Part shown: positions 1,605 to 19,281 of the stretch, one piece after another
Position numbering within the stretch: position 1 is the stretch's first letter
How the letters are laid out: each line of letters starts with the position of its first letter
Source of the DNA: Candidatus Methylomirabilis oxygeniifera
GTDB lineage: Bacteria; Methylomirabilota; Methylomirabilia; Methylomirabilales; Methylomirabilaceae
DNA: 32,000 nucleotides
Reading direction: 5' to 3'
Assembly: GCA_000091165.1 (NCBI GenBank)
Contig: FP565575.1
Span: 600,001 to 632,000, forward strand
Notes under the pieces: model-generated
What the model saw: the letters and a program-made list of their open reading frames with translations, nothing else
Told to the model about the DNA's origin: nothing
Databases searched by the model: none
Translations under genes and position numbers: made by a program

Positions 1605-3178
1605 CGGATGAGGTGCGAGGCAAATCCCCCCTCGCCCCCCTTTACGAAAGGGGGGATGGGGGGTTTTCATGCGGGCCAAGTGCCACAGGCGAGAACGAGG
1701 AGGTCGTTGCCCAGGGACTCGCCTTCAATGAGCCGCTCCTGTTTGATCAGGGATCACGGGGGCGGGTGGGCTGTACACTTCCTGAGTGCGACGTTCCGGA
1801 GCTGAAACCGGAGCGGCTGCTTCCCAGAAAGCTTCTCCGGCACGACATCCCCGGTTTCCCTGAACTCTCCGAGGTCGAGGTGGTCCGGCATTTTACGCGG
1901 CTATCACAATGGAATTACGGAGTCGATACGGGCTTCTACCCATTGGGCTCCTGCACCATGAAGTACAACCCGAAGATCAATGAGGAGGTGTGGCGGCTGC
2001 CGGGCTTTTCATGTGCGCACCCATACCAGCCGGAAAGTCTGATCCAGGGTGCTCTTGAACTGATGTATGAGCTGGAGCAGTGCCTGGCCGAGGTGAGCGG
2101 GATGGACCGGGTGTCACTCCAACCGGCCGCCGGCGCCCAGGGGGAGACCTTGGGCATAATGCTGATCCGGGCGTACCTGGAATCGAAGGGCAATCCGCGG
2201 AAGCGGGTCCTGGTCCCTGACTCCGCCCATGGCACCAATCCCGCGAGTTCCACCATCTGTGGCTACGAGGTGCTGCAGATCAAGTCCGGCCCGAACGGCC
2301 GCCTGGATCCCAAGGCCGTGGCCGACGCCATGAACGAGGACGTGGCCGCCATCATGGTGACGAACCCCAATACCCTTGGGCTCTTCGAGGACCAGATTGC
2401 TGAGGTTGCCAAGATCGTTCATGCGAAGGGCGGGCAGGTCTACTGCGACGGCGCCAACCTGAATGCCATCATCGGGATCTCACGACCTGGCGACACGGGA
2501 ATCGACGTGCTGCACATCAACCTGCATAAGACGTTTGCCGTTCCGCATGGGGGCGGCGGTCCGGGCGCTGGACCGGTGGGGCTCAAGGCGCATCTGGCGC
2601 CATTCATGCCGGTCCCGGTCATCGAGAAGAAGGGAAAGCGGTTCGTCCTGAATGAGGACCTGCCGTCAAGCGTCGGCAAGGTGCGCGCCTTCTATGGGAA
2701 CTTCGCAGCACTGGTCCGGGCCTACGCCTACATCCGTTCGCTGGGTCCATCGGGGCTGCGCCGCGTGGCCGAGGTGGCCGTCATCAATGCCAATTACATC
2801 ATGAACCAGTTGAAAGATTACTACCATCTGCCATACGACAAGTTCTGCAAGCACGAGTGCGTCTTCTCCGATGCGCGTCAGCTTCCGCACGGCGTCCAAA
2901 CCCTGGACATCGCCAAACGATTGATGGATTACGGCTTTCATCCCCCAACCATCTACTTCCCCTTGATCGTCAAGGGGGCCATGATGATCGAGCCGACCGA
3001 GACAGAGAGTAAGGAGACGCTGGATCAGTTCATTGCCGCCATGAAGCAGATCGCCGAGGAGGCCGAGCGCGACCCGGAGCTGGTTCGGTCCGCCCCGCAC
3101 AAGACCAGGGTCTCGCGGCTGGACGAGGCAAAGGCCGCCCGCCATCCGGATCTGCGCTGGAAGGGAAAGACATCCTGA
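1601..3178 (+). CDS. gcvPB: Glycine dehydrogenase (decarboxylating) subunit 2, with an unusual N-terminal extension of about 40 aa
   Basis: 525-aa ORF. PLP-lysine context INLHKTFAVPHGGGGPG and the MIEPTE motif. ATGA overlap with the gcvPA stop. After ATG 1601 and GTG 1613 I see no in-frame ATG/GTG/TTG before the conserved NEPLLFDQ region, so the GC-rich repeat at 1621-1669 is translated. Confidence 0.92.
   Translation: MTDEVRGKSPLAPLYERGDGGFSCGPSATGENEEVVAQGLAFNEPLLFDQGSRGRVGCTLPECDVPELKPERLLPRKLLRHDIPGFPELSEVEVVRHFTRLSQWNYGVDTGFYPLGSCTMKYNPKINEEVWRLPGFSCAHPYQPESLIQGALELMYELEQCLAEVSGMDRVSLQPAAGAQGETLGIMLIRAYLESKGNPRKRVLVPDSAHGTNPASSTICGYEVLQIKSGPNGRLDPKAVADAMNEDVAAIMVTNPNTLGLFEDQIAEVAKIVHAKGGQVYCDGANLNAIIGISRPGDTGIDVLHINLHKTFAVPHGGGGPGAGPVGLKAHLAPFMPVPVIEKKGKRFVLNEDLPSSVGKVRAFYGNFAALVRAYAYIRSLGPSGLRRVAEVAVINANYIMNQLKDYYHLPYDKFCKHECVFSDARQLPHGVQTLDIAKRLMDYGFHPPTIYFPLIVKGAMMIEPTETESKETLDQFIAAMKQIAEEAERDPELVRSAPHKTRVSRLDEAKAARHPDLRWKGKTS
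1621..1669. repeat. GC-rich double-stem palindromic element, copy A (AAATCCCCCC-N3-GCCCCCCCTTT-loop-AAAGGGGGG-N3-GGGGGGTTTT)
   Basis: Read directly. Related copies at 7570-7660 and 23881-23928. Lies inside codons 8-23 of gcvPB. Confidence 0.8.
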
Positions 3179-3195
3179 CTGCCTACGGACCCGAA

Positions 3196-3702
3196 TCAGG
3201 GCCTAACTTCCTGGGATAGTTGGGTCAGGATGCGGTCAGCCTCCTCGAACTGGAACTCGTTGAGGACATGGATGCCCGCTTGCCGAAGGAGGGCTGTGGT
3301 CACGCCCTGTCCCGGGACCCGTCGGGAAGTAAATGTGCCGTCGTAGATGAAGGACGTGCCACAGGACGGGCTGCCCTCTTTGAGGACCGCGACCCGAATC
3401 GACTTCCGCTGAGCGTACTCAAGCGCCTGCTGCGCACCGGCAACGAAGAAGGCGGAGACATTGCCGCCGTTCAGATTAAGGACCCTTCCGGTGCCCGACA
3501 GGACATTTAACCCACCCATCGCGCCTGCGATCTCAGCGGCCGGCCTTGGGATAGGCAACCCTCCCGCGACCTCCGGACAGAACGGCACGACGCGCCCTTC
3601 GTGCAGCCATCGTTGAAGGACGCTATCATGGCTCTGCGTGTGCTCGCCGTTGTGACGAACGCGCTCACCCAGCAGACACGCGCTCACCATCACTCGTTGC
3701 AT
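3196..3702 (-). CDS. DUF523 (YbbK-like) family protein
   Basis: ORF 3196-3771. The likely start is the internal ATG at 3702 (MQRVMVSACLLG). Conserved CPEVAGGLPIPRPAAEI and GSPSCG motifs typical of DUF523. Confidence 0.8.
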   Translation of the reverse strand: MQRVMVSACLLGERVRHNGEHTQSHDSVLQRWLHEGRVVPFCPEVAGGLPIPRPAAEIAGAMGGLNVLSGTGRVLNLNGGNVSAFFVAGAQQALEYAQRKSIRVAVLKEGSPSCGTSFIYDGTFTSRRVPGQGVTTALLRQAGIHVLNEFQFEEADRILTQLSQEVRP

Positions 3703-3828
3703 CGTGAGTTGTCCTGTACGCGACCTGGTAATCGCGCGTGAGGCCCCGCACCGATTATAACTAAAACCCAACCTCGGCCCCGAAGTGTGAGTCGCCGAGT
3801 GCAGCGCCTTATTCGGTGTCCACTCTGA

Positions 3829-4161
3829 TCAACTGAGAGCGAGGAAACCCGACTCATCGTCTGCCGCGACATCATGAATCGCTTGCGCCTGAGCCCTCAG
3901 AATGCAAGCCACCTCAGCGGTCGAGCAGTTGCCGAGCCGGATCCAGACTACCTTCGGTGGATGCCCAAGAATAAAGCTCATCTAGTGAAAGTCCGAGTCC
4001 TTGGAGACGATCGTGAAGTCATGACTGGCAGCGTAGGCCCAGACACACCCGTCGTCGGCCGCCTGGAGATCGACATCACGGACGTGACGGGACCCCGGGA
4101 AGAGATCCTCGATTACCTGAACCAGTCCGGGTGACAGGTTCTGATCGAGGAGGAGCTTCAT
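3829..4161 (-). pseudogene. DUF5615 (Mut7-C/PIN-like) toxin-partner gene interrupted by an in-frame TAG
   Basis: My translation: MKLLLDQNLSPGLVQVIEDLFPGSRHVRDVDLQAADDGCVWAYAASHDFTIVSKDSDFH-TAG(3982-3984)-MSFILGHPPKVVWIRLGNCSTAEV...LS. The ATG overlaps the DUF433 stop (ATGA). Both halves are under 60 aa, so they are absent from the ORF track. Confidence 0.65.
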
Positions 4162-4388
4162 GCGGCTGGCGGGATCCAGGTCATGCGGCGCTCACGATCG
4201 GCTGCAAAGGCCAGACATGCTCGGATGTCTTCGGCGGTGAGATCCGGAAAGTCAGCGAGAATCTCAGCCTCGGACATACCGGAAGCCAAGTAATCCAATA
4301 CATCGTAGACCGTGATGCGCAATCCGCGGATACAGGGCTTCCCGCCTCGCTTGCCGGGCTCAATTGTGATGTGTTTACGATAATCCAT
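4158..4388 (-). CDS. DUF433 domain protein (antitoxin-like partner of DUF5615)
   Basis: 76 aa. GKPCIRGLRITVYDVLDYLASGMSEAEILADFPDLTAEDIRACLAFA matches the DUF433 pattern. Overlaps the downstream DUF5615 reading frame. Confidence 0.8.
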   Translation of the reverse strand: MDYRKHITIEPGKRGGKPCIRGLRITVYDVLDYLASGMSEAEILADFPDLTAEDIRACLAFAADRERRMTWIPPAA

Positions 4389-4550
4389 GAGTGGAGTCTA
4401 GCGATACAGGACCGATCATGTCAAGGGTACGTGTACACCAACGACGCGCTCTAGCCGCGCCCGACGAGGGAAGCGCAAGAGGTGGCGTCTCAGCTTTCAG
4501 GAATCAACGTCCTCCGGCTTATGCCGCTCGCAGGCAGTGGTCGTGCCTTC

Positions 4551-4823
4551 TCATGTTTTAAACAGGTCAGAGTGTGTGCCCATTCTCTCGAAGTACATCC
4601 GATCACCGGCGAGTCTGTAAATCAACAGCCAATCGGACTCAATATGGCACTCACGGCGGCCGATGAAGTTACCGACGAGACGATGGTCACGGTAAATCAG
4701 ATCCAGAGGTTCCGCCGCAAGAAGGCTGCGGATAATGATCTTCAGTTTGTCGAAATTCCTACCACGACGACGGCTTCTCTCCAAGTCTTTAGCAAACTGC
4801 CGGGTATATACCGGCGTGTACAT
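4551..4823 (-). CDS. yafQ: Type II toxin, YafQ/RelE family
   Basis: 90 aa. YRDHRLVGNFIGRRECHIESDWLLIYR...GTHSDLF is the YafQ signature. ATGA-type overlap with the upstream antitoxin. Confidence 0.85.
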   Translation of the reverse strand: MYTPVYTRQFAKDLERSRRRGRNFDKLKIIIRSLLAAEPLDLIYRDHRLVGNFIGRRECHIESDWLLIYRLAGDRMYFERMGTHSDLFKT

Positions 4824-5083
4824 CAGATACCGAGTTTTCGGAACATGTCGTCTGCATCATCGCAGACGACCAGATCACGTCCGGTCTCGGAAGCTTCGAA
4901 TGTCCGTTTCGTGGTTGCTGTCGGAACGACGACATCGAATGGAAGTCCGTCACGAAGCTCAACTTGCCTGTAGAAAATCGTAATGGCTTGCGTTGCATTC
5001 AGGCCCAATCGGTGAAAGACGGATTCGGCGTGGTGTTTCAGGTCCGGTTCCAATCTGGCCCGTACCATTGCGGTCTTGCTCAT
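4823..5083 (-). CDS. dinJ: Type II antitoxin, DinJ/RelB family
   Basis: 86 aa. N-terminal ribbon-helix-helix-like VRARLEPDLKHHAESVFHRLGLNATQAITIFYRQV. Immediately upstream of yafQ. Confidence 0.8.
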   Translation of the reverse strand: MSKTAMVRARLEPDLKHHAESVFHRLGLNATQAITIFYRQVELRDGLPFDVVVPTATTKRTFEASETGRDLVVCDDADDMFRKLGI

Positions 5084-7727: not shown

Positions 7728-8498
7728 ATGGAATTAGGGCTGCGTGGGAAGGTTGTGGTGGTGACCGGTGGAAGCCGGGGGATCGGCAGGGCGATTGCTC
7801 TGGGCTTCGCCGAGGAGGGGTGTAAGCTCAGCATCTGTGGACGAGGTCTGCCGGCACTGGAAGAGGCGACTACGGCGATGAAAGCCTACGGGGTCGAACT
7901 GCTTGCAGTATCCACCGACCTCACCGATCCTCATGGAGCCGAGCGCTTCGTACAGGCGACGCTCGACCGGTATGGCCGGATCGACGTCCTGGTGAACAAC
8001 ATCGGCGGGTCGCGCCGCGGAGAGCTGGAAATCCTCTCAGAAGACGATTGGCGGGAAGCGTACGATCTGAACTTCTTTTCCACGCTGCGGATGGCCAAAC
8101 TGGTCGTACCGGTCATGAAGCGACAGGGCGGTGGGCGGATCATCAACATCGCCTCGATCTGGGGACGAGAGTCGGGAGGGGCGATGACCTACAACGCCTC
8201 CAAGGCGGCGGTGATTAGCCTCTCCAAGTCGCTCGCCAAGGAACTGGCGCCTCACAATATCCTGGTCAACAGCGTCGCGCCCGGTTCGACCCTCTTTCCG
8301 GGCGGCTCGTGGGACAGGCGGCAGCGCGAGAACCCGGCTCAGATCGCTCAGTTTATCAAGGATGAGCTGCCGCTGGGCCGATTCGGCCGCCCCGAGGAGG
8401 TCGCCGCCGTCGTGATCTTCCTGGCATCCCAACAGGCCAGCCTCGTGACCGGCGCATGCGTCACCGTCGACGGCTGTCAGTCGCGGTCGCTCATCTGA
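7728..8498 (+). CDS. Short-chain dehydrogenase/reductase (FabG-like)
   Basis: 256 aa. TGGSRGIG Rossmann motif, NNIG, YNASKAA catalytic motif. RBS AAGGGAGA. Confidence 0.9.
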   Translation: MELGLRGKVVVVTGGSRGIGRAIALGFAEEGCKLSICGRGLPALEEATTAMKAYGVELLAVSTDLTDPHGAERFVQATLDRYGRIDVLVNNIGGSRRGELEILSEDDWREAYDLNFFSTLRMAKLVVPVMKRQGGGRIINIASIWGRESGGAMTYNASKAAVISLSKSLAKELAPHNILVNSVAPGSTLFPGGSWDRRQRENPAQIAQFIKDELPLGRFGRPEEVAAVVIFLASQQASLVTGACVTVDGCQSRSLI

Positions 8499-8815
8499 CC
8501 GCCCGGCGTGGGCGCTGAATCCTGTGCAGGTATATTGAGATTGTCTTGGTCGGTGTTTGTGGGTGTGATAGTGACTCGAAACTGGTTGACAAGTCCCTTG
8601 AAGGGAAAGACAATCCCAGCAGGAACCGACACTCGAATGGCCGTCATATACTGATCAGCGCGCTTATGTCGGTGCGCGATCGGACGACGGCAAGTAACTC
8701 GGGCCGCTTCAAGCAGCGCGGTCTCATATTCGGCGACGCATCGATGGTCAGGGCTGGGGTAGGGTCTGGCGCTGTATCCAGGAACTGATTTCGACGAAGG
8801 ATTGGGAGGCGTATC

Positions 8816-9124
8816 ATGACCCGTGTTCTCGAGAATAAGCGCCAAGCGATAGCTGAAGTCTGCCGGCGTCATGGTGTGGCCCGGCTGGACGCATTCGGCT
8901 CCGCCTTGCGTGATGACTTCAGACCAGGCGAGAGCGATGTGGACCTGCTGGTCGAGTTCTGGCCGATGGCACCATACGCCCGCGTCGACGCCTACTTCGG
9001 CCTGCTCGAAGAACTCAGGGCCTTACTGGGGTCGGAGGTCGACCTCGTCATGGCGGGGGCCGTCAAGAACCCGTACATCGCCCGCGATATCGATCGTACC
9101 AAGCGGATGCTCTATGCCGCATGA
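8816..9124 (+). CDS. Nucleotidyltransferase (MNT-type antitoxin of a HEPN/MNT pair)
   Basis: 102 aa. FGSALRDDFRPGESDVDLLVEF is the minimal-NTase GS...DxD pattern. Overlaps the downstream HEPN start by 11 nt. Confidence 0.85.
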   Translation: MTRVLENKRQAIAEVCRRHGVARLDAFGSALRDDFRPGESDVDLLVEFWPMAPYARVDAYFGLLEELRALLGSEVDLVMAGAVKNPYIARDIDRTKRMLYAA

Positions 9125-9201: not shown

Positions 9202-9269
9202 TGTGCCAATAATAGTGAGACACCTGCCCCCCTGTAAATTAGAGTAGAGGGTAGGGAGGAACACACATC

Positions 9270-9773
9270 ATGAGAACTGGACCGATCACAGCTTCCCAGG
9301 GCAGCGCAGTCGCCCGCCGAGTCCCCGCACGTCCGTGGCCTGGCACCGCACGCCCCGCCGAGCCGCAGCGGGTGGTCCCAGCAGTCCCACCCGATCCCGA
9401 GGTGCCCACAAAGCCGGCACGACGACGGTTCACCGCAGCCGAGAAGCTCCGCATCTTGAGACTCGCCGATGCCTGCACGGTGTCGGGGAGCCTGGGGGCG
9501 CTCTTACGCAAGGAGGGGCTGTACTCGTCGAACCTCACCACCTGGCGCCGACAGCGGGACGCGGGCACCCTGTCCGCCCTCACGCCCCAGAAGCGGGGCC
9601 GCAAACCGTCGATCCGCAGTCCACTCGCCCAGGAGCATGAGCAGCTTCGTCGGGAGAACGAACGGCTGACGCGGCGGCTCCGACAGGCCGAGCTCATCAT
9701 TGATGTTCAAAAAAAAGTTTCGCAGATCCTGGGGATCCCCCTGGCGACCTCCGAGGCAGGAGGCAGCGACTGA
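9270..9773 (+). CDS. IS3-family transposase OrfA (HTH plus leucine-zipper part)
   Basis: 167 aa. RRFTAAEKLRILRLADA...LRRENERLTRRLRQAELIIDVQKK is typical of IS3 OrfA. Confidence 0.85.
   Translation: MRTGPITASQGSAVARRVPARPWPGTARPAEPQRVVPAVPPDPEVPTKPARRRFTAAEKLRILRLADACTVSGSLGALLRKEGLYSSNLTTWRRQRDAGTLSALTPQKRGRKPSIRSPLAQEHEQLRRENERLTRRLRQAELIIDVQKKVSQILGIPLATSEAGGSD
9709..9716 (+). other. Probable -1 programmed ribosomal frameshift site (run of 8 A followed by G)
   Basis: The A-run is near the end of orfA. I checked that the -1 frame is open from 9710 through the orfB ATG at 9773, which would permit an OrfAB fusion as in other IS3 members. Confidence 0.6.
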
Positions 9774-10777
9774 TGGGCGCCGCGCAGACTCTGGCCTCCG
9801 AGGTAGGGATCAAACCGGCCTGCGACGCGTTCGGCACTTCTCGTGCCGGCTTCTACCGCGCCCAGACACGAACGCACGCTCCGATGGTGGAGCCAACGAG
9901 GCGCCCCAGCCCTCCACGGGCGCTGTCCGCCGATGAACGGCAGGGCGTGCTCGACCTGCTGCACGCCGACCGGTTTGCCGACCAGGCGCCCCATGAGGTC
10001 TATGCGACCCTCCTGGACGAAGGCGACTACCGCTGCTCCATCCGCACCATGTACCGACTCCTCAACGACCACACCGAGGTCAAAGAACGCCGGAACCAGT
10101 TGCGCCATCCGGTATATCAGAAACCGGAACTGCTGGCCACGGCCCCGAACCAGGTCTGGTCGTGGGACATTACGAAGCTCCTCAGCCCGGTGACGTGGTC
10201 CTACTTCTACCTCTATGTGATCCTGGACATTTTCAGCCGGTACGTCGTCGGCTGGATGGTCGCCTTGGCGGAATCGGCCGCCTTGGCCGAACGACTCATC
10301 CGTGAGACCTGCGCCAAACAGGGGATCGACAAAGGGCAGCTCACGATCCATGCGGACCGGGGCTCCTCCATGACCTCCAAGCCCGTGGCGTTCCTGTTGG
10401 CCGATCTGGGCGTCACCAAAACCCACAGCCGGCCGCATACGAGTGATGACAACCCGTACTCGGAAAGTCAGTTCAAGACCCTCAAGTACCGACCGGACTT
10501 CCCGGAACGGTTCGGGTGCATCGAGGATGCCCGGGGCTTCTGTCAGGACTTCTTCACCTGGTATAACACCGCGCATCGGCATACGGGCATTGGTCTCCTG
10601 ACACCGGAGGTCCTGCACTACGGCTTGGCGGACGAGGTCCGCGCGGCTCGCGCCGCGATCCTGCAGGCCGCCTATGAAACCCATCCGGAGCGGTTCGTCC
10701 GCAAGGTGCCGGTTCCCCCGGCGCTTCCGGAGGCCGCGTGGATTAACAAACCGAAGCCGATGGATACCGAGCGATGA
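9773..10777 (+). CDS. IS3-family transposase OrfB (DDE/rve integrase core)
   Basis: 334 aa. WSWDITKL, HADRGSSMTS and DNPYSESQFKTLKYRP give the D, D, E context. Confidence 0.9.
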   Translation: MGAAQTLASEVGIKPACDAFGTSRAGFYRAQTRTHAPMVEPTRRPSPPRALSADERQGVLDLLHADRFADQAPHEVYATLLDEGDYRCSIRTMYRLLNDHTEVKERRNQLRHPVYQKPELLATAPNQVWSWDITKLLSPVTWSYFYLYVILDIFSRYVVGWMVALAESAALAERLIRETCAKQGIDKGQLTIHADRGSSMTSKPVAFLLADLGVTKTHSRPHTSDDNPYSESQFKTLKYRPDFPERFGCIEDARGFCQDFFTWYNTAHRHTGIGLLTPEVLHYGLADEVRAARAAILQAAYETHPERFVRKVPVPPALPEAAWINKPKPMDTER

Positions 10778-10825
10778 GGCGCGACACTAAATTCGGACAC
10801 CAGGTGTCTCAAAATCATTGACACA

Positions 10826-11113: not shown

Positions 11114-11115
11114 CC

Positions 11116-11466
11116 ATCGCCTCGATCTGGGGACGGGAGTCGGGAGGGGCGATGACCTACAACGCCTCCAAGGCGGCGGTGATCAGCCTCTCCAAGTCGC
11201 TCGCCAAGGAACTGGCTCCTCACAATATCCTGGTCAACAGCGTGGCACCCGGCTCGACTCTCTTTCCTGGTGGCTCGTGGGACCGACGACAGCGCGAAAA
11301 CCCGGCTCAGATCGCCCAGTTCATCAAAGACGAACTGCCGCTGGGCCGATTCGGCCGCCCCGAGGAGGTCGCGGCCGCCGTGGTCTTCCTGGCGTCCCAA
11401 CAGGCCAGCCTCGTGACCGGCGCATGCGTCACCGTCGACGGCTGCCAGTCGCGCTCGCTCATCTGA
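11116..11466 (+). pseudogene. Second copy of the SDR gene 3' end (351 bp, no 5' part)
   Basis: Aligns without gaps to 8148-8498. I count 24 mismatches but only 2 amino-acid changes (AAVVIF vs AAAVVF). Starts directly after the HEPN stop. Confidence 0.85.
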
Positions 11467-11485
11467 CCGTTCGCCTGTTCCTCTG

Positions 11486-11527: not shown

Positions 11528-11637
11528 TGGCTTTCTGGATACACGAACTCGCGGCAAGCCGCGAGGAATGAACCCTCTGTAGATTCACACGGTTCGAGAT
11601 TTGTCACCGAGAGGTCAGCGCCTCTATGGTTAGACCA

Positions 11638-11858
11638 ATGTCCTAACCCGAGACGGCAGAGGGGTTCGCAGCCGTCTGGACGCACCCGCGGAATTTTACT
11701 TCGGTCGGCCCTATCAGGATCAGGCTGACCGCTGGGGCGGCCTCTGCCGCTCTAGGCCTTGTTGAAATTCCGTTGACAAGTCTGTGAAATCGCAGGAAAC
11801 TCCAACCTATTGTGAGTATTTTTGTGACTGTGCTATACAGACCAGTATAATCATAGTT
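11638..11858 (+). repeat. R220 repeat, copy 1: long imperfect palindrome followed by a promoter-like 3' part
   Basis: Aligns end to end with 18206-18424, with scattered mismatches, a 3-nt indel and one more divergent 16-nt patch. Contains the stem GAGACGGCAGAGG (11650-11662) / CCTCTGCCGCTC (11741-11752) and an inner GGTCGGCC/GGCTGACC hairpin. Confidence 0.85.
11822..11851 (+). promoter_or_regulatory. Putative sigma70-type promoter (TTGTGA-N18-TATAAT) upstream of the TIR gene
   Basis: TATAAT at 11846-11851 is conserved in the other R220 copy. The -35 is weak and the spacing is 18 nt. Prediction by eye only. Confidence 0.35.
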
Positions 11859-11890: not shown

Positions 11891-13069
11891 TTGGAAGTGA
11901 GCTTTCCTACAGACGCGGACAAGTTCCTTTTGCGGGAATGCCCATCTTGCGAACAGCGGTTTAAGGTCGTATTCGGGGAGGGGAGCGACGAGCTGATCTC
12001 GTGCTGCCCGTACTGCGGATACAACGAGCGCAACTGTTGGCACGCTCAGCCACAGGTCGAGTACATACAGGCAGTCGCCGCCAGCGTTGTTGTCGCCCCC
12101 GAACTCAAGAAACTGGAACGCCATCTCAAGGGAATGTCGAAGGGCATTCTCAAAATCGACGTCAATTCGAGCATCTCGTCGCCGCCACCGCCGCCTATGG
12201 AGACGGATGAACCGTTCGCCATCCTTCACTTTCCATGCTGCAACGAAACAATCAAGGTTGAACGTCGCGACCACCATTTTTGCGTTATCTGTGGTACGGA
12301 GGTTGACATGGGAATCAGCGACTCGAAGAAAGTGTTCTTGAGCCACAAAGGTATTGACAAGGATTTGGTAATTGACTTCAAGAAATCCTTGAAACTGGTT
12401 GGTTACGACCCGTGGCTAGACGAAGATGCGATGCCCGCGGGGACGTCACTTGAACGCGGGCTCCTTCAAAGTATGCGGGATTCTTGCGGCGTCGTGTTTT
12501 TTGTTACTCCATCGTTCAAAGACGAGGGGTTCCTGGAAACCGAAGTCAATTACGCGATTCAAGAGAAGCGGAAGAAGGGCGACAAATTCGCAATTGTGAC
12601 GCTGCAGTTTTGCGGCGCTGACGGCAACGTCGGGGAAATTCCTGAATTGCTCAAGACCTACGTCTGGAAGAAGCCTAAAACGCCACTTGAGGCGTTCGGG
12701 GAAATTGTTCGCGCGCTGCCGGTCGTGCCGGGAATCGTTGACTGGCGCGAAGGGATCACGGGTGTAGTTACCACTCCGAGGACGAAATCGACAACCACGC
12801 AGCTTTGCGATGAAGCAAAGGCGATTTTGAAGGCTGCAGTGGCCGGTGACGGAAGAATCACACACCTTCGCAACATGGGCGGTGAAAAAATTGGAGCGGG
12901 GGGTCAGTCGATGATACCGGACAATGATTCGCGCACCATTGCTCGTTGGGTTGGCGGCCTCGAAGATCTCCAACGTCGCCGATACGCCAAAGATCTCGGC
13001 CACAAGGGCGAGGTCTTCGAAGTCACCAGGGAAGGCTACGAAGCGGCAGACGAACTTCCAGACGCTTGA
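11891..13069 (+). CDS. Zn-ribbon / TIR domain protein with an unassigned C-terminal domain
   Basis: 392 aa. CPSC...CCPYC and PCC...CVIC cysteine pairs sit at the N-terminus. The TIR-like core spans aa 146-275 (KKVFLSHKG...WLDEDAMPAG...VVFFVTPSFKDEGFLETEVNYA). Start is TTG 11891 or GTG 11897; there is no in-frame ATG. Confidence 0.8.
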   Translation: MEVSFPTDADKFLLRECPSCEQRFKVVFGEGSDELISCCPYCGYNERNCWHAQPQVEYIQAVAASVVVAPELKKLERHLKGMSKGILKIDVNSSISSPPPPPMETDEPFAILHFPCCNETIKVERRDHHFCVICGTEVDMGISDSKKVFLSHKGIDKDLVIDFKKSLKLVGYDPWLDEDAMPAGTSLERGLLQSMRDSCGVVFFVTPSFKDEGFLETEVNYAIQEKRKKGDKFAIVTLQFCGADGNVGEIPELLKTYVWKKPKTPLEAFGEIVRALPVVPGIVDWREGITGVVTTPRTKSTTTQLCDEAKAILKAAVAGDGRITHLRNMGGEKIGAGGQSMIPDNDSRTIARWVGGLEDLQRRRYAKDLGHKGEVFEVTREGYEAADELPDA

Positions 13070-13085: not shown

Positions 13086-13175
13086 ACAAAACTAGGCGAT
13101 CCACCAGAGCCGCGTTCAGGTTGTGCAGTATGGCTAGGCTGTATCGTCGCGGCCTGGTGATCCCGGTCGTTAGGG
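13086..13175 (+). other. attC-like imperfect palindrome S1
   Basis: ACAAAAC (13086-13092), 5-nt spacer, then GATCCACCAGAGCCGCG (13098-13114). That arm pairs with CGCGGCCTGGTGATC (13148-13162) as 15 bp with 2 bulged bases. A 6-nt spacer and GTTAGGG (13169-13175) follow. No T-tract. Confidence 0.4.
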
Positions 13176-13249
13176 GGTATTTTGTCAAGCGCCCCAGGGT
13201 GTTTGCGGGATTCATCTGATAGCTGGGCTCTGGAGAAGTGAAACCATAG

Positions 13250-15076
13250 ATGAGCATTCTGGGACGGTTCCTCAATCGACTGACAGAGAGTGAAGAAGGC
13301 GCTTACCTTGCGCCCCGGGAACGTGCATACGAGCATACGCGCGATGCGCGCACGCTAGAACCCGCCGGAGCAGCCATCGTCCGTTTTGCACCGACCTTCA
13401 AGCTTGAGCGGGAAGCAACGCAGTGGCCTGATGGCTTCTGGAACCACTTCAACTCCGCCAACTCTCACTACAAGCGAGGGCACTATCGCAAAGCCAAAGA
13501 GGCCTACTCATCGGCTCGTTCACTGCTTGCCGGCTATGGGGCCCTGGACACCGCCCTGCTCCGGACGTACAGAAAGCTGTACAGGGGCGCCATAGACAAG
13601 AAGCGTTGGGACGAAGCCTACCAGGAGCTATGCGAGCTATTCGAGACGCTTCCTTCTGGCGTCTCAGACACGGACAGGCGGCAGTTCAAAAAGGTTATGC
13701 AGGTGCTCAAGAAGTCCGATCCGGGCTTCTCGGGGCAACCCATGCCGCTGCAGGAACAGAGGCAAACGGGAGGCGAGAAGCCATCGGCGGAAGTGGAGTC
13801 CGCCTCCGGCAAAGACATCGCGGTGCAGCGAGATGAAACGTGGGAGCGACCCAAAGGCGAAAAGCCGCTCAGATGGCAAGAAAACCAGCTCACCTCAGGG
13901 GGGTTTCTTGCCGTGCACCGGAGGTATGACGAGCAGGCCGGAGGCTACCGCTCCTGCAATATCAGGACATACTCTTCACATGGAGACATCCAATCCGAGA
14001 AAGACTGGCTGCGCAGCTTCTACAGACTGAAGATCAGTAACACCGGAGAGCACCTGATAGGCTATTCTGACGATCTGCAGATGTCACTGTCGACGCTAAG
14101 CGGGGACATACTCGCCGAGCGAAGCGTCGCACGCGTCGCCGACGGCAACAAGTACCACATCCGATGCGTTGATCTATCTGAAGGCGGGATGCACTGCCTC
14201 TTCACATCCGCGACAAGGGCGTACCTTCTCGATCAAATGCTTCGCACGCTCTGTGTCTGGATAATGCCGCCCCCGCCTGGCTACCAGGTTGAGCACGGTG
14301 GCCAGGACGCTGGCCACCAACGTATAGAGAGGGCGTTTGCGACGCTGGAGCTGACAGGCCATCCGACGCAGGAGGAGATCAGAGCGCAGTTCCGGCAGAT
14401 GGTGTTCCGCTACCATCCGGACCGGAACCCTGGGGACACTGCGGCGCAGGAACGCACCAAGGAGATCATCGCAGCATACAAGATGGTGTCAGAGGAAGAC
14501 GTCGCTGCTGCCCTTGAGGGCCTGGGTGACAGAGAGTACTACTACCAGATTCTGCATGAGACGGAGCTGGATATAGGTGACACGGGCTACTCTGTGAAGC
14601 TCAGAATGTCCATGAGTGGTCCCGGCGATTGGATATATGCAACCCACATGACGGCGCGGGCGGAGAGGATCTATCTCGGCTGCTATTCCGGCTTGATCTA
14701 CTGCGTTGATCTTGACGGGAACGTCCTCAAAGTCTACCAGACGGATGCCCCGATCGACGGCATCGTGGAGCGAGGACAACATCTATACATATGGACGCAC
14801 ACCAGCCTGTACGTGTTGGGCCGCGACAAGGTCGTTAGCCACATCGATCTTAGGGGAGGCAGCCTCAAGTGTTTCGCAGAATGGGGGCTTATTGTCAAGA
14901 AAGGATCCTCCCTTGTTCTGTGCTCAGCAGACGGGACTTGGCTTGCGAATGTCCGTTTCCAAAGGGAGGCCCATGAGGTAGTCCCGACCTCAAGCGGTCT
15001 TGTCGCCTACACGACGAAAGAACGGTTTCGCGTCTCGCTGTCGGATGCACCTGCGGCTTCGTCTGCCAGATCGTAG
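13250..15076 (+). CDS. J-domain (DnaJ-like, HPD motif) protein with TPR-like N-terminus and beta-propeller-like repeats
   Basis: 608 aa. J-domain around aa 358-417 (FATLELTGHPTQEEIRAQFRQMVFRYHPDRNPGD...IIAAYKMV), with HPD at nt 14414-14422. It is flanked by beta-strand-rich repeats (IYCVDLDGNVLKVYQ, LYIWTHTSLYVLG). The fold assignment of the flanks is inference. Confidence 0.8.
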   Translation: MSILGRFLNRLTESEEGAYLAPRERAYEHTRDARTLEPAGAAIVRFAPTFKLEREATQWPDGFWNHFNSANSHYKRGHYRKAKEAYSSARSLLAGYGALDTALLRTYRKLYRGAIDKKRWDEAYQELCELFETLPSGVSDTDRRQFKKVMQVLKKSDPGFSGQPMPLQEQRQTGGEKPSAEVESASGKDIAVQRDETWERPKGEKPLRWQENQLTSGGFLAVHRRYDEQAGGYRSCNIRTYSSHGDIQSEKDWLRSFYRLKISNTGEHLIGYSDDLQMSLSTLSGDILAERSVARVADGNKYHIRCVDLSEGGMHCLFTSATRAYLLDQMLRTLCVWIMPPPPGYQVEHGGQDAGHQRIERAFATLELTGHPTQEEIRAQFRQMVFRYHPDRNPGDTAAQERTKEIIAAYKMVSEEDVAAALEGLGDREYYYQILHETELDIGDTGYSVKLRMSMSGPGDWIYATHMTARAERIYLGCYSGLIYCVDLDGNVLKVYQTDAPIDGIVERGQHLYIWTHTSLYVLGRDKVVSHIDLRGGSLKCFAEWGLIVKKGSSLVLCSADGTWLANVRFQREAHEVVPTSSGLVAYTTKERFRVSLSDAPAASSARS

Positions 15077-15078
15077 TC

Positions 15079-15154
15079 AGCCGAACACCCCCTAACCGGC
15101 GCTTGCTGCCAGACAGCGCTATGCGCTGCAGCAGAAGCGCCAATCGTTCGGCTT
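15079..15154 (+). other. attC-like imperfect palindrome S2
   Basis: AGCCGAAC (15079-15086) pairs with GTTCGGCT (15147-15154). Inner stem GGCGCTTGCTGC (15098-15109) / GCAGCAGAAGCGCC (15128-15141) has a 2-nt bulge. Also carries ACCCCCTAAC (15087-15096). Starts 3 nt after the stop codon. Confidence 0.45.
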
Positions 15155-15190: not shown

Positions 15191-16396
15191 ATGGGACTCC
15201 GTTTTCGAAGGTCAGTAAAGCTCGCTCCCGGTGTCCGAATGAACTTCAGCGGCAGTGGCGTAAGTTGGACGCTTGGCCCTAGGGGCGCGTCCGTCGGTAT
15301 CGGGAAGCGAGGGACGTATTTCAACACTGGTATTCCCGGAACGGGATTTTACGCCAGGGAGCGTATGGCGGGTTCCCGTGCAGGCAACCGGGCACGTGCA
15401 TCATCCTACTCAAACATATCCGTCTCTGTTGGAGTAGCAGATGATGGAACAGTGTATTTCCAGGACGCAGAAGGAAAGCCGCTCGCAGAACATTTGATCA
15501 ATACAGCAAAAAAGCAACAAGGTGACGCAATACGAGATCTTATTCAACAGAAATGTGATGAGATAAATGCACAAATCGAAGCGCTTGGGGAAATTCACGT
15601 CGATACTCCGAACCCCAATGTAAAGCTCCAATATCAACCACAGGAGTTTCCAGAATCTCCGCCCACAAAACCGGGTCCAAAAAAACCTGGGCTAATGGGC
15701 ATGTTCTTCAAGTCCGGACGAGAAAGAATAGAAAGAGAAAACCAAGCGAGAGAGCGTCAATTCGAGGAGGACCTTGAAAAATGGCGAGCGGCTAAATACC
15801 AGTTCGATGAAGCCGAGGAACATCGTAAGGATGTGATCGAACGAGGCATCTACACCAATGTGGAGATGATGGAAAACTTCTTGGAAGAGAACTTACAGAG
15901 CATTGTTTGGCCGCGTGAGACAATTTTATCAACAGAGATTCTTGATAACGGAAAAAGGGTGTTCGTCGATGTCGATCTCCCGGAGTTAGAAGGTATGCCG
16001 AGCAAAACAGCTTCGGCCCCCCAGCGAGGCTACAAGCTATCCGTAAAGGAAATGTCAGCCACACAGATTCAACGACTGTACATGCGTCATGTACACGGAA
16101 TCGGATTCAGAATTATAGGGGAAACCTTTGGTGCTTTACCCAACGCACAAGAAGTGGTGCTCTCCGCATATTCGCAACGTCCAGATCGAACAACTGGCCA
16201 TGTAACGGATGAGTATCTTTATTCGGTGCGAGTAACCAGGGCTTCATGGTCTCGCATAAATTTTGACAATCTGCAGAACTTGGATGTTGTAGATGCTCTT
16301 ACGCAGTTTGACTTGAAGAGAAACATGACAAAGACGGGGGCCTTCAAACCCATCGAACCATTCACCCCGAATGCACAGAAAATCGAACAGGCCTAA
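15191..16396 (+). CDS. DUF4236 domain protein
   Basis: 401 aa. The N-terminus MGLRFRRSVKLAPGVRMNFSGSGVSWTLGPRGASVGIGKRGTYFNTGIPGTGFY is the DUF4236 signature. A charged coiled-coil-like middle and an unassigned C-terminal domain follow. Confidence 0.8.
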   Translation: MGLRFRRSVKLAPGVRMNFSGSGVSWTLGPRGASVGIGKRGTYFNTGIPGTGFYARERMAGSRAGNRARASSYSNISVSVGVADDGTVYFQDAEGKPLAEHLINTAKKQQGDAIRDLIQQKCDEINAQIEALGEIHVDTPNPNVKLQYQPQEFPESPPTKPGPKKPGLMGMFFKSGRERIERENQARERQFEEDLEKWRAAKYQFDEAEEHRKDVIERGIYTNVEMMENFLEENLQSIVWPRETILSTEILDNGKRVFVDVDLPELEGMPSKTASAPQRGYKLSVKEMSATQIQRLYMRHVHGIGFRIIGETFGALPNAQEVVLSAYSQRPDRTTGHVTDEYLYSVRVTRASWSRINFDNLQNLDVVDALTQFDLKRNMTKTGAFKPIEPFTPNAQKIEQA

Positions 16397-16468
16397 CGAG
16401 ATACTCCAACAGAAGGCGCTGTCGGCGCTCCGCGCCGCCAGGGCCGCGGCTGAGCTTCGTCGTTGGGT
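16391..16468 (+). other. attC-like imperfect palindrome S3
   Basis: GCCTAAC (16391-16397) overlaps the TAA stop. TCCAAC (16405-16410) pairs with GTTGGG (16462-16467) and GAAG with CTTC, with bulges. GC-rich centre contains a GGCGC-TCC-GCGCC hairpin. Confidence 0.45.
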
Positions 16469-16505
16469 TACCTGCGCCAATGTCAGTTGGTCGGGTTGAT
16501 ACTAC

Positions 16506-17192
16506 ATGGACTCTCGCTACATTGCTGCAGTTAGTATGGCGTTCGTAATAGCCATAGGTTTCCTCAGGACGCTCACCGCCTATAGAGGGTTGAAGAAGCG
16601 CAGGGACTTTGTATCTGAGTTCTCTGACAAGTTCGTGGAATTTGCCAATAATCCAGATTTCGACGGCAAGCTGTATTATTGGCTGACTCACAACTCGGTT
16701 GCCATTCAATCGGAACTTGGTCCCTTGGGTGTTGCATCCTACAAACCGCCGGCAATTGATTACGTGATACACAATTACCAGATGATCGTCAATCTTCTGC
16801 CAGAACTGAGAAGAAAGAAGACTGAGAATCGTTTGTTTCGCGATGGGGAAATCCACCGCGAATATGCCACAATGTGCCTGGATATCTTGGTCAGGTATCT
16901 GGGTGTAATCGATAGATGGCTACAAGAGGCGAGAGATGAGCTTCGAAACCCGTTTATCTGGCTTGGCCAAGGTGTTCAATCCATTCTGCTTTTGCCCGCC
17001 TATGTCCTGCACTGGTTTGGCTTACTTGGTGCATCTGCTCTGGGGACACTGACAAGAAACATCCTTGTCAAAAGCATTTCGTTCATTGTAGCTGTCGTGG
17101 GTCTTTTGAGTAGCTTGGTTACACTCCTCGTTGGATGGGAGGAGACGGCAAGAATAATTGGGCCTCTATGGCGCGACGCCTTTGGCCCATAA
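16506..17192 (+). CDS. Multi-pass membrane protein, no family recognised
   Basis: 228 aa. Hydrophobic segments YIAAVSMAFVIAIGFL, SILLLPAYVLHWFGLLGASALG and ISFIVAVVGLLSSLVTLLVGW. Same strand as the three upstream genes. Confidence 0.6.
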   Translation: MDSRYIAAVSMAFVIAIGFLRTLTAYRGLKKRRDFVSEFSDKFVEFANNPDFDGKLYYWLTHNSVAIQSELGPLGVASYKPPAIDYVIHNYQMIVNLLPELRRKKTENRLFRDGEIHREYATMCLDILVRYLGVIDRWLQEARDELRNPFIWLGQGVQSILLLPAYVLHWFGLLGASALGTLTRNILVKSISFIVAVVGLLSSLVTLLVGWEETARIIGPLWRDAFGP

Positions 17193-17201
17193 GTCATGGC
17201 A

Positions 17202-17266
17202 GCCCAACATCACGTGCATCCGACCGCTTCGCGCTATGTGCTCGCGGCTTATGCGCTGCGTTCGCT
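17202..17266 (+). other. attC-like imperfect palindrome S4
   Basis: GCCCAAC (17202-17208), 5-nt spacer, then GTGCATCCGAC (17214-17224). That arm pairs with GCTTATGCGC (17247-17256). A 3-nt spacer and GTTCGCT (17260-17266) follow. Centre is CCGCTTCGCG...CGCGG. Confidence 0.45.
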
Positions 17267-17450
17267 GATTTCGGGGACACCATGCTGTATGCTTCACTTC
17301 GGGATTGAGTGGGAATCGGTATGGTATCCTAATATCCTGGGTCGGAAGTTCGGCGAAGAAATAGGCGCCGCATGTGGTGTCACTCCCGCGAAGCTTGTCC
17401 CCGCGGGCTTTAGGCGGGGAGCGGGAATCCAGAACTTCTCTTACTCGCTG
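17249..17450 (+). repeat. R200 repeat, copy 1 (structured, apparently non-coding)
   Basis: Aligns with 19072-19281. Contains the imperfect inverted repeat GGACACCATGCTG / CGGTATGGTATCC and a GTCAyTCCCGCG...GGGAATCC double hairpin. Confidence 0.85.
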
Positions 17451-17632: not shown

Positions 17633-17732
17633 GGTCGCCACCGTCGTGATCTTTCTGGCATCCCAACAGGCCAGCCTCGTGACCGGCGCATGCGTCACCG
17701 TCGACGGCTGTCAGCCGCGTTCGCTCATCTGA
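17633..17732 (+). pseudogene. Third copy of the SDR gene 3' end (100 bp)
   Basis: Aligns to 8399-8498 with 4 mismatches by my count and ends at the same TGA. Preceded by the hairpin GGTCTTGA (17593-17600) / TCAAGACC (17620-17627). Confidence 0.8.
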
Positions 17733-17814
17733 CGCCCGGGCCACGCTTGACAGGGAAGACGTTTATCTATACAAATCTCCGCCTGGAAGGCGAACAAACG
17801 ACAGAGGGTGCAGT

Positions 17815-18027
17815 ATGAAAAAAATCGTTGCTGAACCGTATCGCGATATCGATTTCTCCCGTGCCAAGCGAGGCGCAGTCATCAAGCCGGAGCCTGGCAA
17901 GACCAAGATTTCTATCCGGCTCGACAATGCCATCCTCGACTATTTTCGCTCACTGGCTGACGAGGCGGGTGGCGGGAGTTATCAGACACTGATCAACAAC
18001 GCCCTGTCCGCGTATATCCAGCAGTAA
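17815..18027 (+). CDS. BrnA-like (DUF4415/CopG-like) antitoxin, orphan
   Basis: 70 aa. KISIRLDNAILDYFRSLADEAGGGSYQTLINNALSAYI matches the BrnA pattern. No BrnT-like ORF lies upstream. Confidence 0.7.
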   Translation: MKKIVAEPYRDIDFSRAKRGAVIKPEPGKTKISIRLDNAILDYFRSLADEAGGGSYQTLINNALSAYIQQ

Positions 18028-18205
18028 TCGGTCCTGGAGGCGGTTCGACGGGTTGTCAGGGAGGAACTCGTTCTCCCGAAAGCGGGGCGTGATTTAACTC
18101 GACGGTCGACAGGACGCCGCGCGAGCGCGACGTAAGCCAGGTAACGCACCGGGCACTTCGTTTCACTGCCGACAACGCCCTCGTCACCTGTTCCGACTCC
18201 CTCCA

Positions 18206-18424
18206 TTGTCCTAAACCGAGACGGCAGAGGGGTTCGCAGCCTTGGACGCACCCGCGGAATCTTACGTTGGTCGGCCCTATTAGGATTAGGCCGACCGCTG
18301 TGGCGGCCTTTGCCGCTATAGGCCTTGTTGAAATTCCGTTGACAAGCCTGTGAAATCGCAGGAAACTCCAACGTATTGTGAGTAGCCTTGAGACTATACG
18401 ATACAGACCAGTATAATCATAGTT
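18206..18424 (+). repeat. R220 repeat, copy 2
   Basis: See 11638-11858. The inner hairpin is perfect here (GGTCGGCC/GGCCGACC). Confidence 0.85.
18388..18417 (+). promoter_or_regulatory. Putative sigma70-type promoter (TTGAGA-N18-TATAAT) upstream of the antitoxin/ParE pair
   Basis: Same position within R220 as 11822-11851. By eye only. Confidence 0.35.
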
Positions 18425-18996: not shown

Positions 18997-19089
18997 CACG
19001 CGCGTCAACCCGCCGGTCCGTCCGGCTGCGCCGGTTACGTCTCCATGGAGCGAGTGCGGGCGGCCCTCGGGTTACGCGCCCCGTTCGCT
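18991..19089 (+). other. attC-like imperfect palindrome S5
   Basis: GGTTAAC (18991-18997) overlaps the TAA stop. GCGCGTCAACC (19000-19010) pairs with GGTTACGCGC (19070-19079) as 10 bp with one bulged C. GTTCGCT lies at 19083-19089. Internal CTCCATGGAG palindrome. Confidence 0.4.
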
Positions 19090-19281
19090 GATTTCGGGGA
19101 CACCATGCTGTATGCTTCACTTCGGGGTTGAGTGGGAATCGGTATGGTATCCTCATGTCCTAGGTCGAAAGTTCGGCGAAGAAATAGACGCCGCATGTGA
19201 TGTCATTCCCGCGACACTTGTCCCTGCAGGCTTTAAGCGGGGAGGGGGAATCCGGAACTCCTCTTACTCTCTTACTCGCTG
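19072..19281 (+). repeat. R200 repeat, copy 2
   Basis: See 17249-17450. Carries a tandem duplication of CTCTTACT near its 3' end. Confidence 0.85.

Follow-up and report, generated by a model that had tools for sequence, protein, structure and literature searches.

Why should a bacterial protein hold an Hsp70-recruiting domain in the midst of beta-strand repeats, and why should its gene lie next to one for a TIR protein? J-domain proteins decide what Hsp70 acts on and, to our knowledge, almost all of the characterized bacterial ones are housekeeping proteins. The question is raised by a gene in a 32,000-nt stretch of Candidatus Methylomirabilis oxygeniifera (assembly GCA_000091165.1, contig FP565575.1, positions 600,001 to 632,000 of the forward strand), which is the whole of the DNA analysed and is referred to as the window, with positions counted from its first letter. 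An initial annotation of the window had proposed that a J-domain presented on a propeller-like scaffold beside a TIR protein would couple host Hsp70 to a sensing or effector function. Our analysis leads to a different reading, to which we assign a probability of about 0.5: the J protein is a stand-alone class-C co-chaperone on a TPR/propeller scaffold, acting as a mobile single-gene player in conflicts between hosts and genetic elements, with defence the likeliest role in the clade of the window.

The J-domain and its scaffold

The gene is supported over its entire length by 43 full-architecture homologues. Its product divides into the following parts.

13250..15076, + strand: complete gene of the J-domain/propeller protein, with an ATG start and 608 amino acids (aa), from the list of open reading frames (ORFs)
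aa 1-30: N-terminus, disordered in the full-length AlphaFold2 (AF2) model
13427..13729, + strand: TPR-like helical domain, aa 60-160, with five helices at aa 63-156, a predicted local distance difference test score (pLDDT) of ~90 and a weak TPR_2 match
13775..14299, + strand: N-terminal half of the predicted propeller, aa 176-350, with 15 strands (aa 180-349), from AF2 models and Foldseek alignments
14306..14524, + strand: J-domain, aa 353-425, four helices, from Pfam, PDB DnaJ matches, a gapless alignment with DnaJ and its absence from J-less relatives
14414..14422, + strand: HPD tripeptide, H389-P390-D391, invariant in 34 of 34 aligned homologues
14534..14620, + strand: long beta-hairpin, aa 429-457, with strands of 14 and 11 residues in the AF2 model
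14630..15049, + strand: C-terminal half of the predicted propeller, aa 461-600, with PQQ-like blades, from a pLDDT of 94-97 and profile matches

The presence of a canonical mid-protein J-domain, with its HPD at this position, was borne out. The peptide quoted in the initial annotation is found in the translation, and Pfam DnaJ (PF00226) matches aa 363-417 at E 1e-11 and 45.2 bits, above a gathering cut-off of 27.8. A profile of the family matched the J-domain of E. coli DnaJ (1bqz) at E 2.6e-16. When aligned pairwise and without gaps to DnaJ residues 7-70, the window J-domain is 33% identical and retains R22, Y25 (as F), K26 (as R), HPD, R36, N37 and K48, with H389-P390-D391 opposite H33-P34-D35. 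The HPD, between J-domain helices II and III, is the motif that stimulates the Hsp70 ATPase. Conservation of the basic residues of helix II and of the HPD, together with purifying selection, gives indirect support to the idea that this domain would do likewise. The linkers of the domain (aa 351-353 and 415-426) have a pLDDT below 50 in the full-length model.

No other Pfam match in the 608-aa protein exceeded its threshold; the DnaJ zinc-finger and C-terminal families gave none, and the stretch following the J-domain, SEEDVAAALEGLGDRE, is not rich in glycine and phenylalanine (G/F). The NCBIfam models for DnaJ (41.6 bits against a cut-off of 338) and CbpA (17.9 against 403) scored far below their cut-offs. 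We therefore concur with the initial annotation that the protein has no G/F region, zinc finger or C-terminal substrate domain and is not a housekeeping DnaJ or CbpA, a view with which the rarity, patchiness and variable contexts of its homologues agree. Class A or B identity was thus rejected, as was identity with DjlA, whose model (NF006948) reached 22.3 bits against a cut-off of 162 and matched the J-domain region only.

The nature of the scaffold was examined by structure prediction. A full-length AF2 model built on 34 homologues had a mean pLDDT of 81.6 and a predicted template modelling score (pTM) of 0.65, and modelling of aa 176-608 alone improved these values to 85.8 and 0.77. When both models were compared with the PDB using Foldseek, the best 50 matches were all beta-propellers (probability 1.00), so that the propeller hypothesis came through its check by AlphaFold. 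The alignments of 439-476 columns span both beta halves and include seven-bladed WD40 propellers among their targets; template modelling scores, normalised to targets of ~300 residues, were 0.63 (5xjc_E) and 0.60 (9l5r_E and 6vyc_B). Across both beta regions the models hold 30-32 strands. Upstream of the J-domain, the strand-rich repeats initially placed at aa ~215-335 proved to extend over 15 strands from aa 180 to 349; downstream, 17 strands lie in aa 429-597, of which 15 are beyond the hairpin.

The suggestion of PQQ/WD-like blades downstream is reflected in profile matches. Through aa 463-527 only, the family profile matches the PQQ-type propellers Cake9, Cake10 and Cake8 (E 6e-13 to 9e-12) and 3hxj (E 3e-10); it also matches Scone, like the Cake proteins a designed propeller, all of these within the range E 3e-10 to 6e-13. 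The PQQ-like Pfam family Beta-prop_ACSF4 was hit by the J protein at E 0.0035, with 17.2 bits against a cut-off of 133, and no Pfam match to WD40 was found in this protein. A TPR-like stretch had been annotated at aa ~60-135: the helices are there in the model, five of them, but their identity as TPR is weak by sequence, consisting of a single repeat at aa 66-91 that matches TPR_2 at E 0.0096 and 16.4 bits (cut-off 27). Overall, we consider it very probable that the two beta regions form one propeller of seven to eight blades preceded by TPR-like helices.

A line of evidence independent of structure prediction comes from relatives that have no J-domain. A profile search of 1.84 billion representative proteins returned 173 family clusters (50% identity) at E<=1e-30, which were mapped onto the family profile. 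Most of the mapped clusters show the full architecture, and several without the J-domain keep both beta halves. The profile match jumps from position 346 to 461 over six residues in P0119 and from 350 to 461 over five residues in P0164, so that both the J-domain and the hairpin are missing; in P0173 it jumps from 343 to 438 over nine residues, with loss of the J-domain and retention of the hairpin. In P0187 this site is occupied by an acidic low-complexity insert of ~140 aa, and in P0181 and P0159 by degenerate J-like inserts without an HPD. As J-less relatives link the two beta halves by only 5-9 residues, this comparison shows that the J-domain with its adjacent hairpin was inserted at a fixed loop of an older TPR and propeller scaffold and that the two beta regions belong together. 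These junctions and the models agree in placing the J-domain inside the propeller.

Conservation extends over the entire protein. The HPD and ~25 other positions are invariant in homologues down to 26% identity, and all four modules contain conserved motifs. Invariant residues of the helical domain are W64, Y74, Y79, A82, R108, K109 and D142; the N-terminal propeller half has conserved KYHxRCxD and LFT..RAYL.D motifs, and the C-terminal half has invariant DWI and Y.G.Y.G..Y motifs. The ratio of non-synonymous to synonymous substitution rates (dN/dS, Nei-Gojobori) against relatives at useful divergence was 0.15-0.22 overall and lowest in the J-domain (0.07-0.19); the closest pair, formed with locus L070 described below, has too few substitutions for this ratio.

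Other members of the family differ at their ends. Two J-less proteins, P0119 (1212 aa) and P0154 (1074 aa), have the TPR part, both propeller halves and a long C-terminal extension that ends in a TerB_C domain (E 3e-17 and 9e-20, respectively). As DjlA combines TerB with a J-domain, related scaffolds seem to carry either a TerB-type or a J-domain module as their output. In other variants the TPR part is replaced by unrelated N-termini, and the late N-terminal beta region, J-domain and C-terminal beta region are retained; Pfam found nothing in these N-termini of the ~700-aa variants except a weak HHH_5. Relatives of Bacteroidales type (L018 9137-11602, L060 3393-5870 and P0085), of 714-825 aa, have an extra N-terminal region in which a helix-hairpin-helix (HHH_5, E 5e-6 in L060) hints at DNA binding in this branch.

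The gene as a module and its neighbours

Members of this family are rare. Among 5.8 billion proteins, a word-indexed search recovered no more than 43, nearly all of them metagenomic and labelled 'hypothetical', 'DnaJ domain' or similar, and the family is represented in Pfam, NCBIfam and PADLOC only through the J-domain. Ten loci were present among 185,579 species genomes (one genome per species), in Aminicenantes, Thermodesulfovibrionales (Nitrospirota), Desulfobaccales (Desulfobacterota), Bacteroidales/Rikenellaceae and Candidatus Peribacteria. A scatter of this kind over unrelated phyla is the distribution of a horizontally moving accessory gene. A phage origin was rejected, there being no relatives in 2.9 million viral contigs or 50,697 phage genomes.

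The mobility of the gene is seen most directly by comparing the window with L070, a contig of 3 kb that comes from a different metagenome and encodes a J protein of 94% identity. The features needed for this comparison are given below.

11635..11858, + strand: left flank of a 'cargo slot' (repeats D4/D2), with a 90% identical copy at 18203-18424 and a counterpart in L070 at 1-93
11891..13069, + strand: TIR protein with a PDC-M14A-like Zn-ribbon, the upstream neighbour; TIR_2 E 1.1e-12, PDC-M14A E 1.4e-18
13168..15150, + strand: mobile module, comprising the ORF with 82 bp upstream and 74 bp downstream; 96.4% identical to L070 by blastn, over this span only
15191..17192, + strand: genes of a DUF4236 protein (15191-16396; DUF4236 E 1e-21) and a 228-aa protein (16506-17192), which together form a separate cassette of 2.1 kb that L070 lacks
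17245..17449, + strand: right flank of the cargo slot (repeat D1), with a 90% identical copy at 19068-19272 and a counterpart in L070 at 2919-3018

Both loci have the D2 and D1 flanks. Between them, L070 has a gene for a 260-aa trypsin-like protein in place of the TIR gene (Trypsin_2 E 0.003; LmuA E 2e-4; catalytic H and D and a GGLSGCP motif by eye), and its J module is followed directly by D1, with the DUF4236 and 228-aa genes missing. At the level of sequence, the J gene is a discrete module inside a conserved cargo slot with exchangeable neighbours. The adjoining TIR protein is real, as the initial annotation had it. Functional coupling to it is not supported, since homology to L070 is confined to 13168-15150 and no neighbour is conserved in the wider survey described next; TIR stands beside the gene only in the window and a protease replaces it in L070. 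On our reading, the J protein is not a functional partner of the adjacent TIR protein. A Thoeris system with the J gene as an accessory was likewise rejected because there is no ThsA and TIR is not conserved beside homologues: the TIR protein matches ThsB models weakly (E 2e-4) and is nearer to PDC-M14A and SAVED-TIR models, and ThsA gave no match in the J protein, the DUF4236 protein or the 228-aa protein.

We then surveyed the neighbourhoods of 44 locus groups, de-duplicated beforehand, by comparing all ORFs lying within 6 kb with one another using BLASTP. The survey of homologues yielded no named partner and no conserved synteny, and a conserved partner gene was rejected, the commonest neighbour being a tyrosine integrase found in six groups. 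What recurs beside the J gene is a series of different defence-type genes. A same-strand gene lies just upstream in nearly every locus with enough sequence, and strong matches to defence families were found for this gene in nine of the 31 loci listed and in the P0007 contig, including the following.

Window: TIR, E 1.1e-12
L072 and P0007 contig: SIR2 (PDC-S65), E 1e-164
L022: NucC-like PD-DExK, E 4e-24
L025: HEPN_AbiU2, E 7e-26
L013: PDC-M19B, E 7e-62
L014: DUF2971 (PDC-S31), E 1e-65
L038: reverse transcriptase RT_UG34 (DRT), E 3e-166
L012: HerA, E 2e-67

Further upstream genes encode an HNH nuclease (L061) and proteins with weak matches to a protease (L070) and to DUF2971 (L006). In L012 a PD-T4-6-like kinase gene (1e-66) lies downstream, in L009 SMODS and SLATT are near the J gene, and FokI-like nuclease, PIN_12, BrnT toxin and HicA toxin genes are among the other downstream or nearby genes. 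Recombinases or transposases occur within 6 kb in 18 of the 44 groups. J proteins that are at least 85% identical have different upstream genes (L006 compared with L025, and L026 with L027 and L047). Intergenic gaps are mostly ~120-600 bp. Given such gaps, and several neighbours that are self-sufficient by definition (single-gene PDC candidates and a DRT), we read the pattern as one of co-residence in defence islands and cargo ends of elements and not of operon partnership. A dedicated chaperone system was sought in all 73 loci (755 kb): E. coli DnaK and GrpE gave no tblastn match at E<=1e-3, and no Hsp70 or GrpE Pfam family appears in the locus gene tables.

Some loci and genes showed further features of their own. 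The L072 locus is a dense defence island in which SIR2 is preceded, within 201-5072, by a protein of 1143 aa that combines guanylate cyclase, AAA_16 and TPR domains and resembles a STAND-like sensor. The TIR protein of the window has a Zn-ribbon-like region (aa 1-137) that matches the PADLOC candidate PDC-M14A and an uncharacterized C-terminus of ~140 aa; no PDC-M14 partner was present among the neighbours tested. The family match of the DUF4236 protein (401 aa) covers its first 56 aa only, the 228-aa protein weakly matches the PADLOC '2TM effector' (E 0.0015), and the guanine plus cytosine content of these two genes is 49-51%, compared with 60% in the flanks.

The island in the window covers ~11 kb and is bounded by housekeeping genes: glycine-cleavage P subunits, ThiD, endonuclease V and SDR on the left, up to 8.5 kb, and glycogen phosphorylase and others on the right, from 20.2 kb. 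It contains an MNT gene, an IS3 element, the TIR and J genes, the DUF4236 and 228-aa genes and several toxin-antitoxin genes; no integrase was found in it. Two tandem cargo slots share repeats of ~220 nt on the left and ~205 nt on the right (~90% identity) and differ in cargo, one holding the TIR, J, DUF4236 and 228-aa genes and the other an Unstab_antitox/ParE pair, with protease and J genes in L070. The D1 and D2 repeats gave no Rfam match at E<=0.1 and no tRNA or tmRNA. The 2.1-kb segment with the DUF4236 and 228-aa genes is bounded by a ~35-bp imperfect direct repeat (GCGCTATGYGCT..GCGC..CGTTCG) at ~15116-15152 and ~17231-17267, which is present as a single copy in L070 (~2919-2953). Two copies in the window and one in L070 are what would be expected if the segment was gained or lost by recombination between repeats. 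Integron-like attC sites at the cassette junctions were rejected, inspection by eye revealing only a short hairpin and the ~35-bp repeat; a 10-nt core, TATGCGCTGC, was found twice, which by itself is not above chance.

Three copies of the 3' end of the SDR gene (7728-8498) lie in the window, at 8147-8506, 11115-11469 and 17633-17739, with 93% identity over 355 bp and 95% over 108 bp, and the ORF at 11152-11466 is a C-terminal SDR fragment (adh_short_C2). This tripled gene end looks like the outcome of successive insertions at the same site, each of which would have brought a replacement gene end. The IS3-family element (9202-10825), with 25-nt inverted repeats at 9202-9226 and 10801-10825 and genes for OrfA (HTH_Tnp_1) and OrfB (rve), lies directly after the MNT-type nucleotidyltransferase gene (8816-9124). 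By eye, the tail of the ORF before it resembles the start of a HEPN/DUF86 toxin, so IS3 probably disrupted the HEPN partner of MNT; Pfam gave no match for this tail. A BrnA-type antitoxin gene (17815-18027, E 4e-10) has no recognizable adjoining BrnT gene.

Possible roles

Within defence islands, and where integrative elements end, the self-contained module adjoins different defence genes each time, and it is for this reason that we read it as a single-gene participant in conflict. In the mechanism that we envisage, the TPR/propeller surface would bind a specific protein target and the HPD of the tethered J-domain would, in keeping with J-domain biochemistry, trigger ATP hydrolysis by DnaK, which may then clamp, remodel or sequester the target. 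The partner would be the housekeeping DnaK of the host, as no dedicated Hsp70 is encoded nearby. The contexts of the genes suggest that the target may belong to an invading element or, where the gene is plasmid-borne, to the host. Activity as a DnaK-targeting adaptor is likely and a conflict-related role is somewhat favoured; a role in host defence for the TPR-bearing clade of the window is put forward tentatively. A more specific proposal, which is speculative and on balance unlikely, is that of a one-gene immune device whose propeller recognizes a conserved phage or plasmid protein, with DnaK either clamping, unfolding or sequestering this protein or being diverted from a DnaK-dependent phage. 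Infection would then be blocked without a toxic effector domain, and the plasmid-borne cousins may act in reverse on host defence proteins.

Several observations weigh against the reading as a single-gene participant in conflict. The assignment of seven to eight blades, with the J-domain in one blade loop, derives from predicted models and not from solved structures. Profile-profile comparison by hhalign found no significant blade-to-blade repeats (best P 0.04), and hence it is structure prediction and the J-less relatives that support the N-terminal half of the propeller. The association with defence is drawn from immediate neighbours, without a matched genomic background, and about two-thirds of the upstream genes have no defence annotation. 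Diversifying selection, which is often seen in immune sensors, was not detected in any domain, all of which are under purifying selection. The J protein matches no PADLOC-DB v2 family at E<=0.1. Finally, distant core-form relatives in plasmid backbones are found beside SSB, ParB, ArdC-like and relaxase genes, surroundings associated with establishment and anti-defence and not with host defence.

These plasmid relatives suggest an alternative in which the protein serves a plasmid or integrative element by hijacking DnaK, either for establishment or replication after transfer or for anti-defence. When 72,556 plasmids were searched by tblastn, relatives turned up on four repABC plasmids from cultured Rhodobacterales (WP_241188392, WP_317389063 and WP_114294386 are among the proteins), where they hold conserved positions in the backbone. 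They have the core form, being proteins of 575-710 aa whose profile match runs unbroken over positions 298-597 (108-145 bits) and includes the HPD. In one arrangement repABC, a large ParB, the J protein, (H-NS), SSB, DUF932, RadC and antitoxins follow one another; in the other HipA, a zincin-like (ArdC-type) peptidase, the J protein, DUF2958, a relaxase and the type IV coupling protein (T4CP). Elsewhere, an integrase and HTH_17 are directly upstream of the J gene in L004, SSB, N6_N4 methyltransferase and integrases occur in L009 and L010, and serine recombinases, an integrase or Mu-like transposases adjoin it in L019, L020, L059, L060, L067 and L068. Virus-encoded J-proteins (polyomavirus T antigens including large T antigen, and Rki of phage RB43) hijack host Hsp70, and several plasmid initiators (P1 RepA, F RepE) need DnaK/DnaJ. 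Plasmid leading regions are enriched in SSBs, methyltransferases, toxin-antitoxin genes and anti-defence genes (PMC11541004), although that survey of leading regions mentions neither chaperones nor J-proteins. Against service to an element, the TPR-bearing clade of the window resides in chromosomal islands near defence genes, here without a recombinase of its own, and the viral and phage collections hold no relative. In addition, identity to the plasmid relatives is no more than 26-28%, and TPR is replaced in them by a winged-helix-like N-terminus; their role may therefore have diverged. We consider this alternative doubtful. A plasmid of Leisingera caerulea (L075, NZ_CP081097.1) has an intact 575-aa J/propeller gene at the start of its record (~1-1730), with a layout nearly identical to that of a Pseudohalocynthiibacter protein and no feature in the gene table of the plasmid collection.

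A second alternative is a two-gene defence module in which the J protein is a sensor or regulator and a swappable upstream effector is held inactive, or activated, via DnaK. The regular occurrence of a same-strand upstream ORF would fit, as would the effector-type enzymes encoded there (TIR, SIR2, NucC-like, AbiU2, HNH, trypsin-like and, by eye, HExxH), the replacement of TIR by a protease beside J modules that are 96% identical in DNA, and the DUF2971 genes that precede the J gene in L006 and L014, two divergent J lineages. A promoter scan of the window found a single consensus promoter, a sigma-70-like one upstream of TIR in D2 (11822-11851, 10 of 12 matches), and therefore TIR and the J gene may be co-transcribed. 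However, DRT UG34 and the single-gene candidates PDC-S31 and PDC-S65 are complete systems that were defined independently of J proteins. An adaptor domain common to the upstream proteins was rejected: all-vs-all BLASTP linked only L011 with L023, which have the same gene, and the weak DUF2971 pair L006 and L014. The spacing between genes, mostly without overlap, also speaks against a two-gene unit, as do upstream genes that are not effectors (HU-like with AAA_33 and, by eye, a DHH phosphoesterase and an AlkD-like protein), the plasmid relatives, which have no such upstream neighbour, and the L070 homology boundary, which falls between the upstream gene and the J gene. Such a module is improbable.

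A specialized housekeeping co-chaperone like HscB or DjlA, found near defence and mobile genes by coincidence, is a very improbable explanation: the canonical J-domain is under strong purifying selection, class-C J-proteins with varied client-binding domains are common (PMC10410713) and a few loci have housekeeping neighbours (NAD synthase and Ddl in L034, ABC transporter genes in L006), but a gene with ~10 occurrences in 185,579 species genomes scattered over unrelated phyla, with no conserved synteny, a cassette-like organization within a cargo slot where neighbours are exchanged, and frequent adjacency to recombinases and defence genes does not behave in this manner.

A conflict-related, single-gene role for the J protein would, if true, provide a direct and genetically simple link of DnaK to the conflict between hosts and mobile elements. 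The relatives on plasmids of cultured Rhodobacterales make the family experimentally tractable and, for annotation purposes, this family of 173 clusters merits a model of its own.

Comparison with known systems

A J-domain/propeller protein, or a tie of such a protein to defence, was not described in the literature searched. The closest general class is that of the class C (type III) J-proteins (DjlA, CbpA-like proteins and HscB), which have the same canonical four-helix J-domain with an HPD. As the G/F region, zinc finger and DnaJ C-terminal domain are absent, the rest of the protein would set client specificity. A large survey of J-proteins counts 1,725 different partner domains in class C, among them many whose function is unknown (PMC10410713); its main text contains neither 'WD40' nor 'propeller'. 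In those proteins the J-domain is terminal, whereas here it is internal, in a propeller loop, and the gene is mobile and rare and not part of the core genome.

The eukaryotic proteins DNAJC3 (p58IPK) and DNAJC7 pair TPR-type helices that bind clients or partners with an Hsp70-recruiting J-domain, an arrangement that the TPR-like helices and J-domain here would parallel, and the family profile matches the DNAJC3 J-domain (2y4t) at E 7e-6. Their J-domain is C-terminal, however, they have no propeller, and outside the J-domain there is no homology to the family. TPR-containing J-proteins of this type have been found only in eukaryotes (PMC10410713). Virus-encoded J-proteins resemble the present family in that an element-borne J-domain redirects Hsp70, but their architecture is different and the family has no relatives in viral collections.

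Precedent for co-chaperones in bacterial conflict is provided by the GAP1-N2 GTPase conflict systems, in which J-domain/FNIII or TPR proteins are part of a predicted anti-invader system (Kaur, Burroughs, Iyer, Aravind 2020, PMC7159879). These likewise fuse a J-domain or TPR to a beta-rich binding module, which is FNIII in that case and a propeller here. They encode their own HSP70, GrpE and GTPases, whereas none of the 73 loci has Hsp70 or GrpE, and on this ground we regard the family as distinct from the GAP1-N2 J-domain fusions. Propeller and TPR repeats are known as protein-recognition surfaces in defence islands (PMC13581612; PMC7159879). Compared with the WD40/TPR sensors of STAND/Avs proteins, the protein described here has no STAND NTPase or effector domain, and the J-domain would be its output.

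A dependence of defence on host chaperones has been described for bNACHT25, an NLR-related defence protein that needs host DnaJ/DnaK for phage sensing, and whose authors predict that other uncharacterized systems guard or use host chaperones (PMC12169576). That protein combines a NACHT NTPase with a nuclease effector and has no J-domain of its own, whereas the protein of the window has a J-domain and no NTPase or recognizable effector domain; the link to DnaK proposed here would complement that system. Class-C J-proteins with diverse client-binding domains are known; what the literature searched does not describe is a J-domain in a propeller loop as a stand-alone mobile module of defence islands and plasmid backbones.

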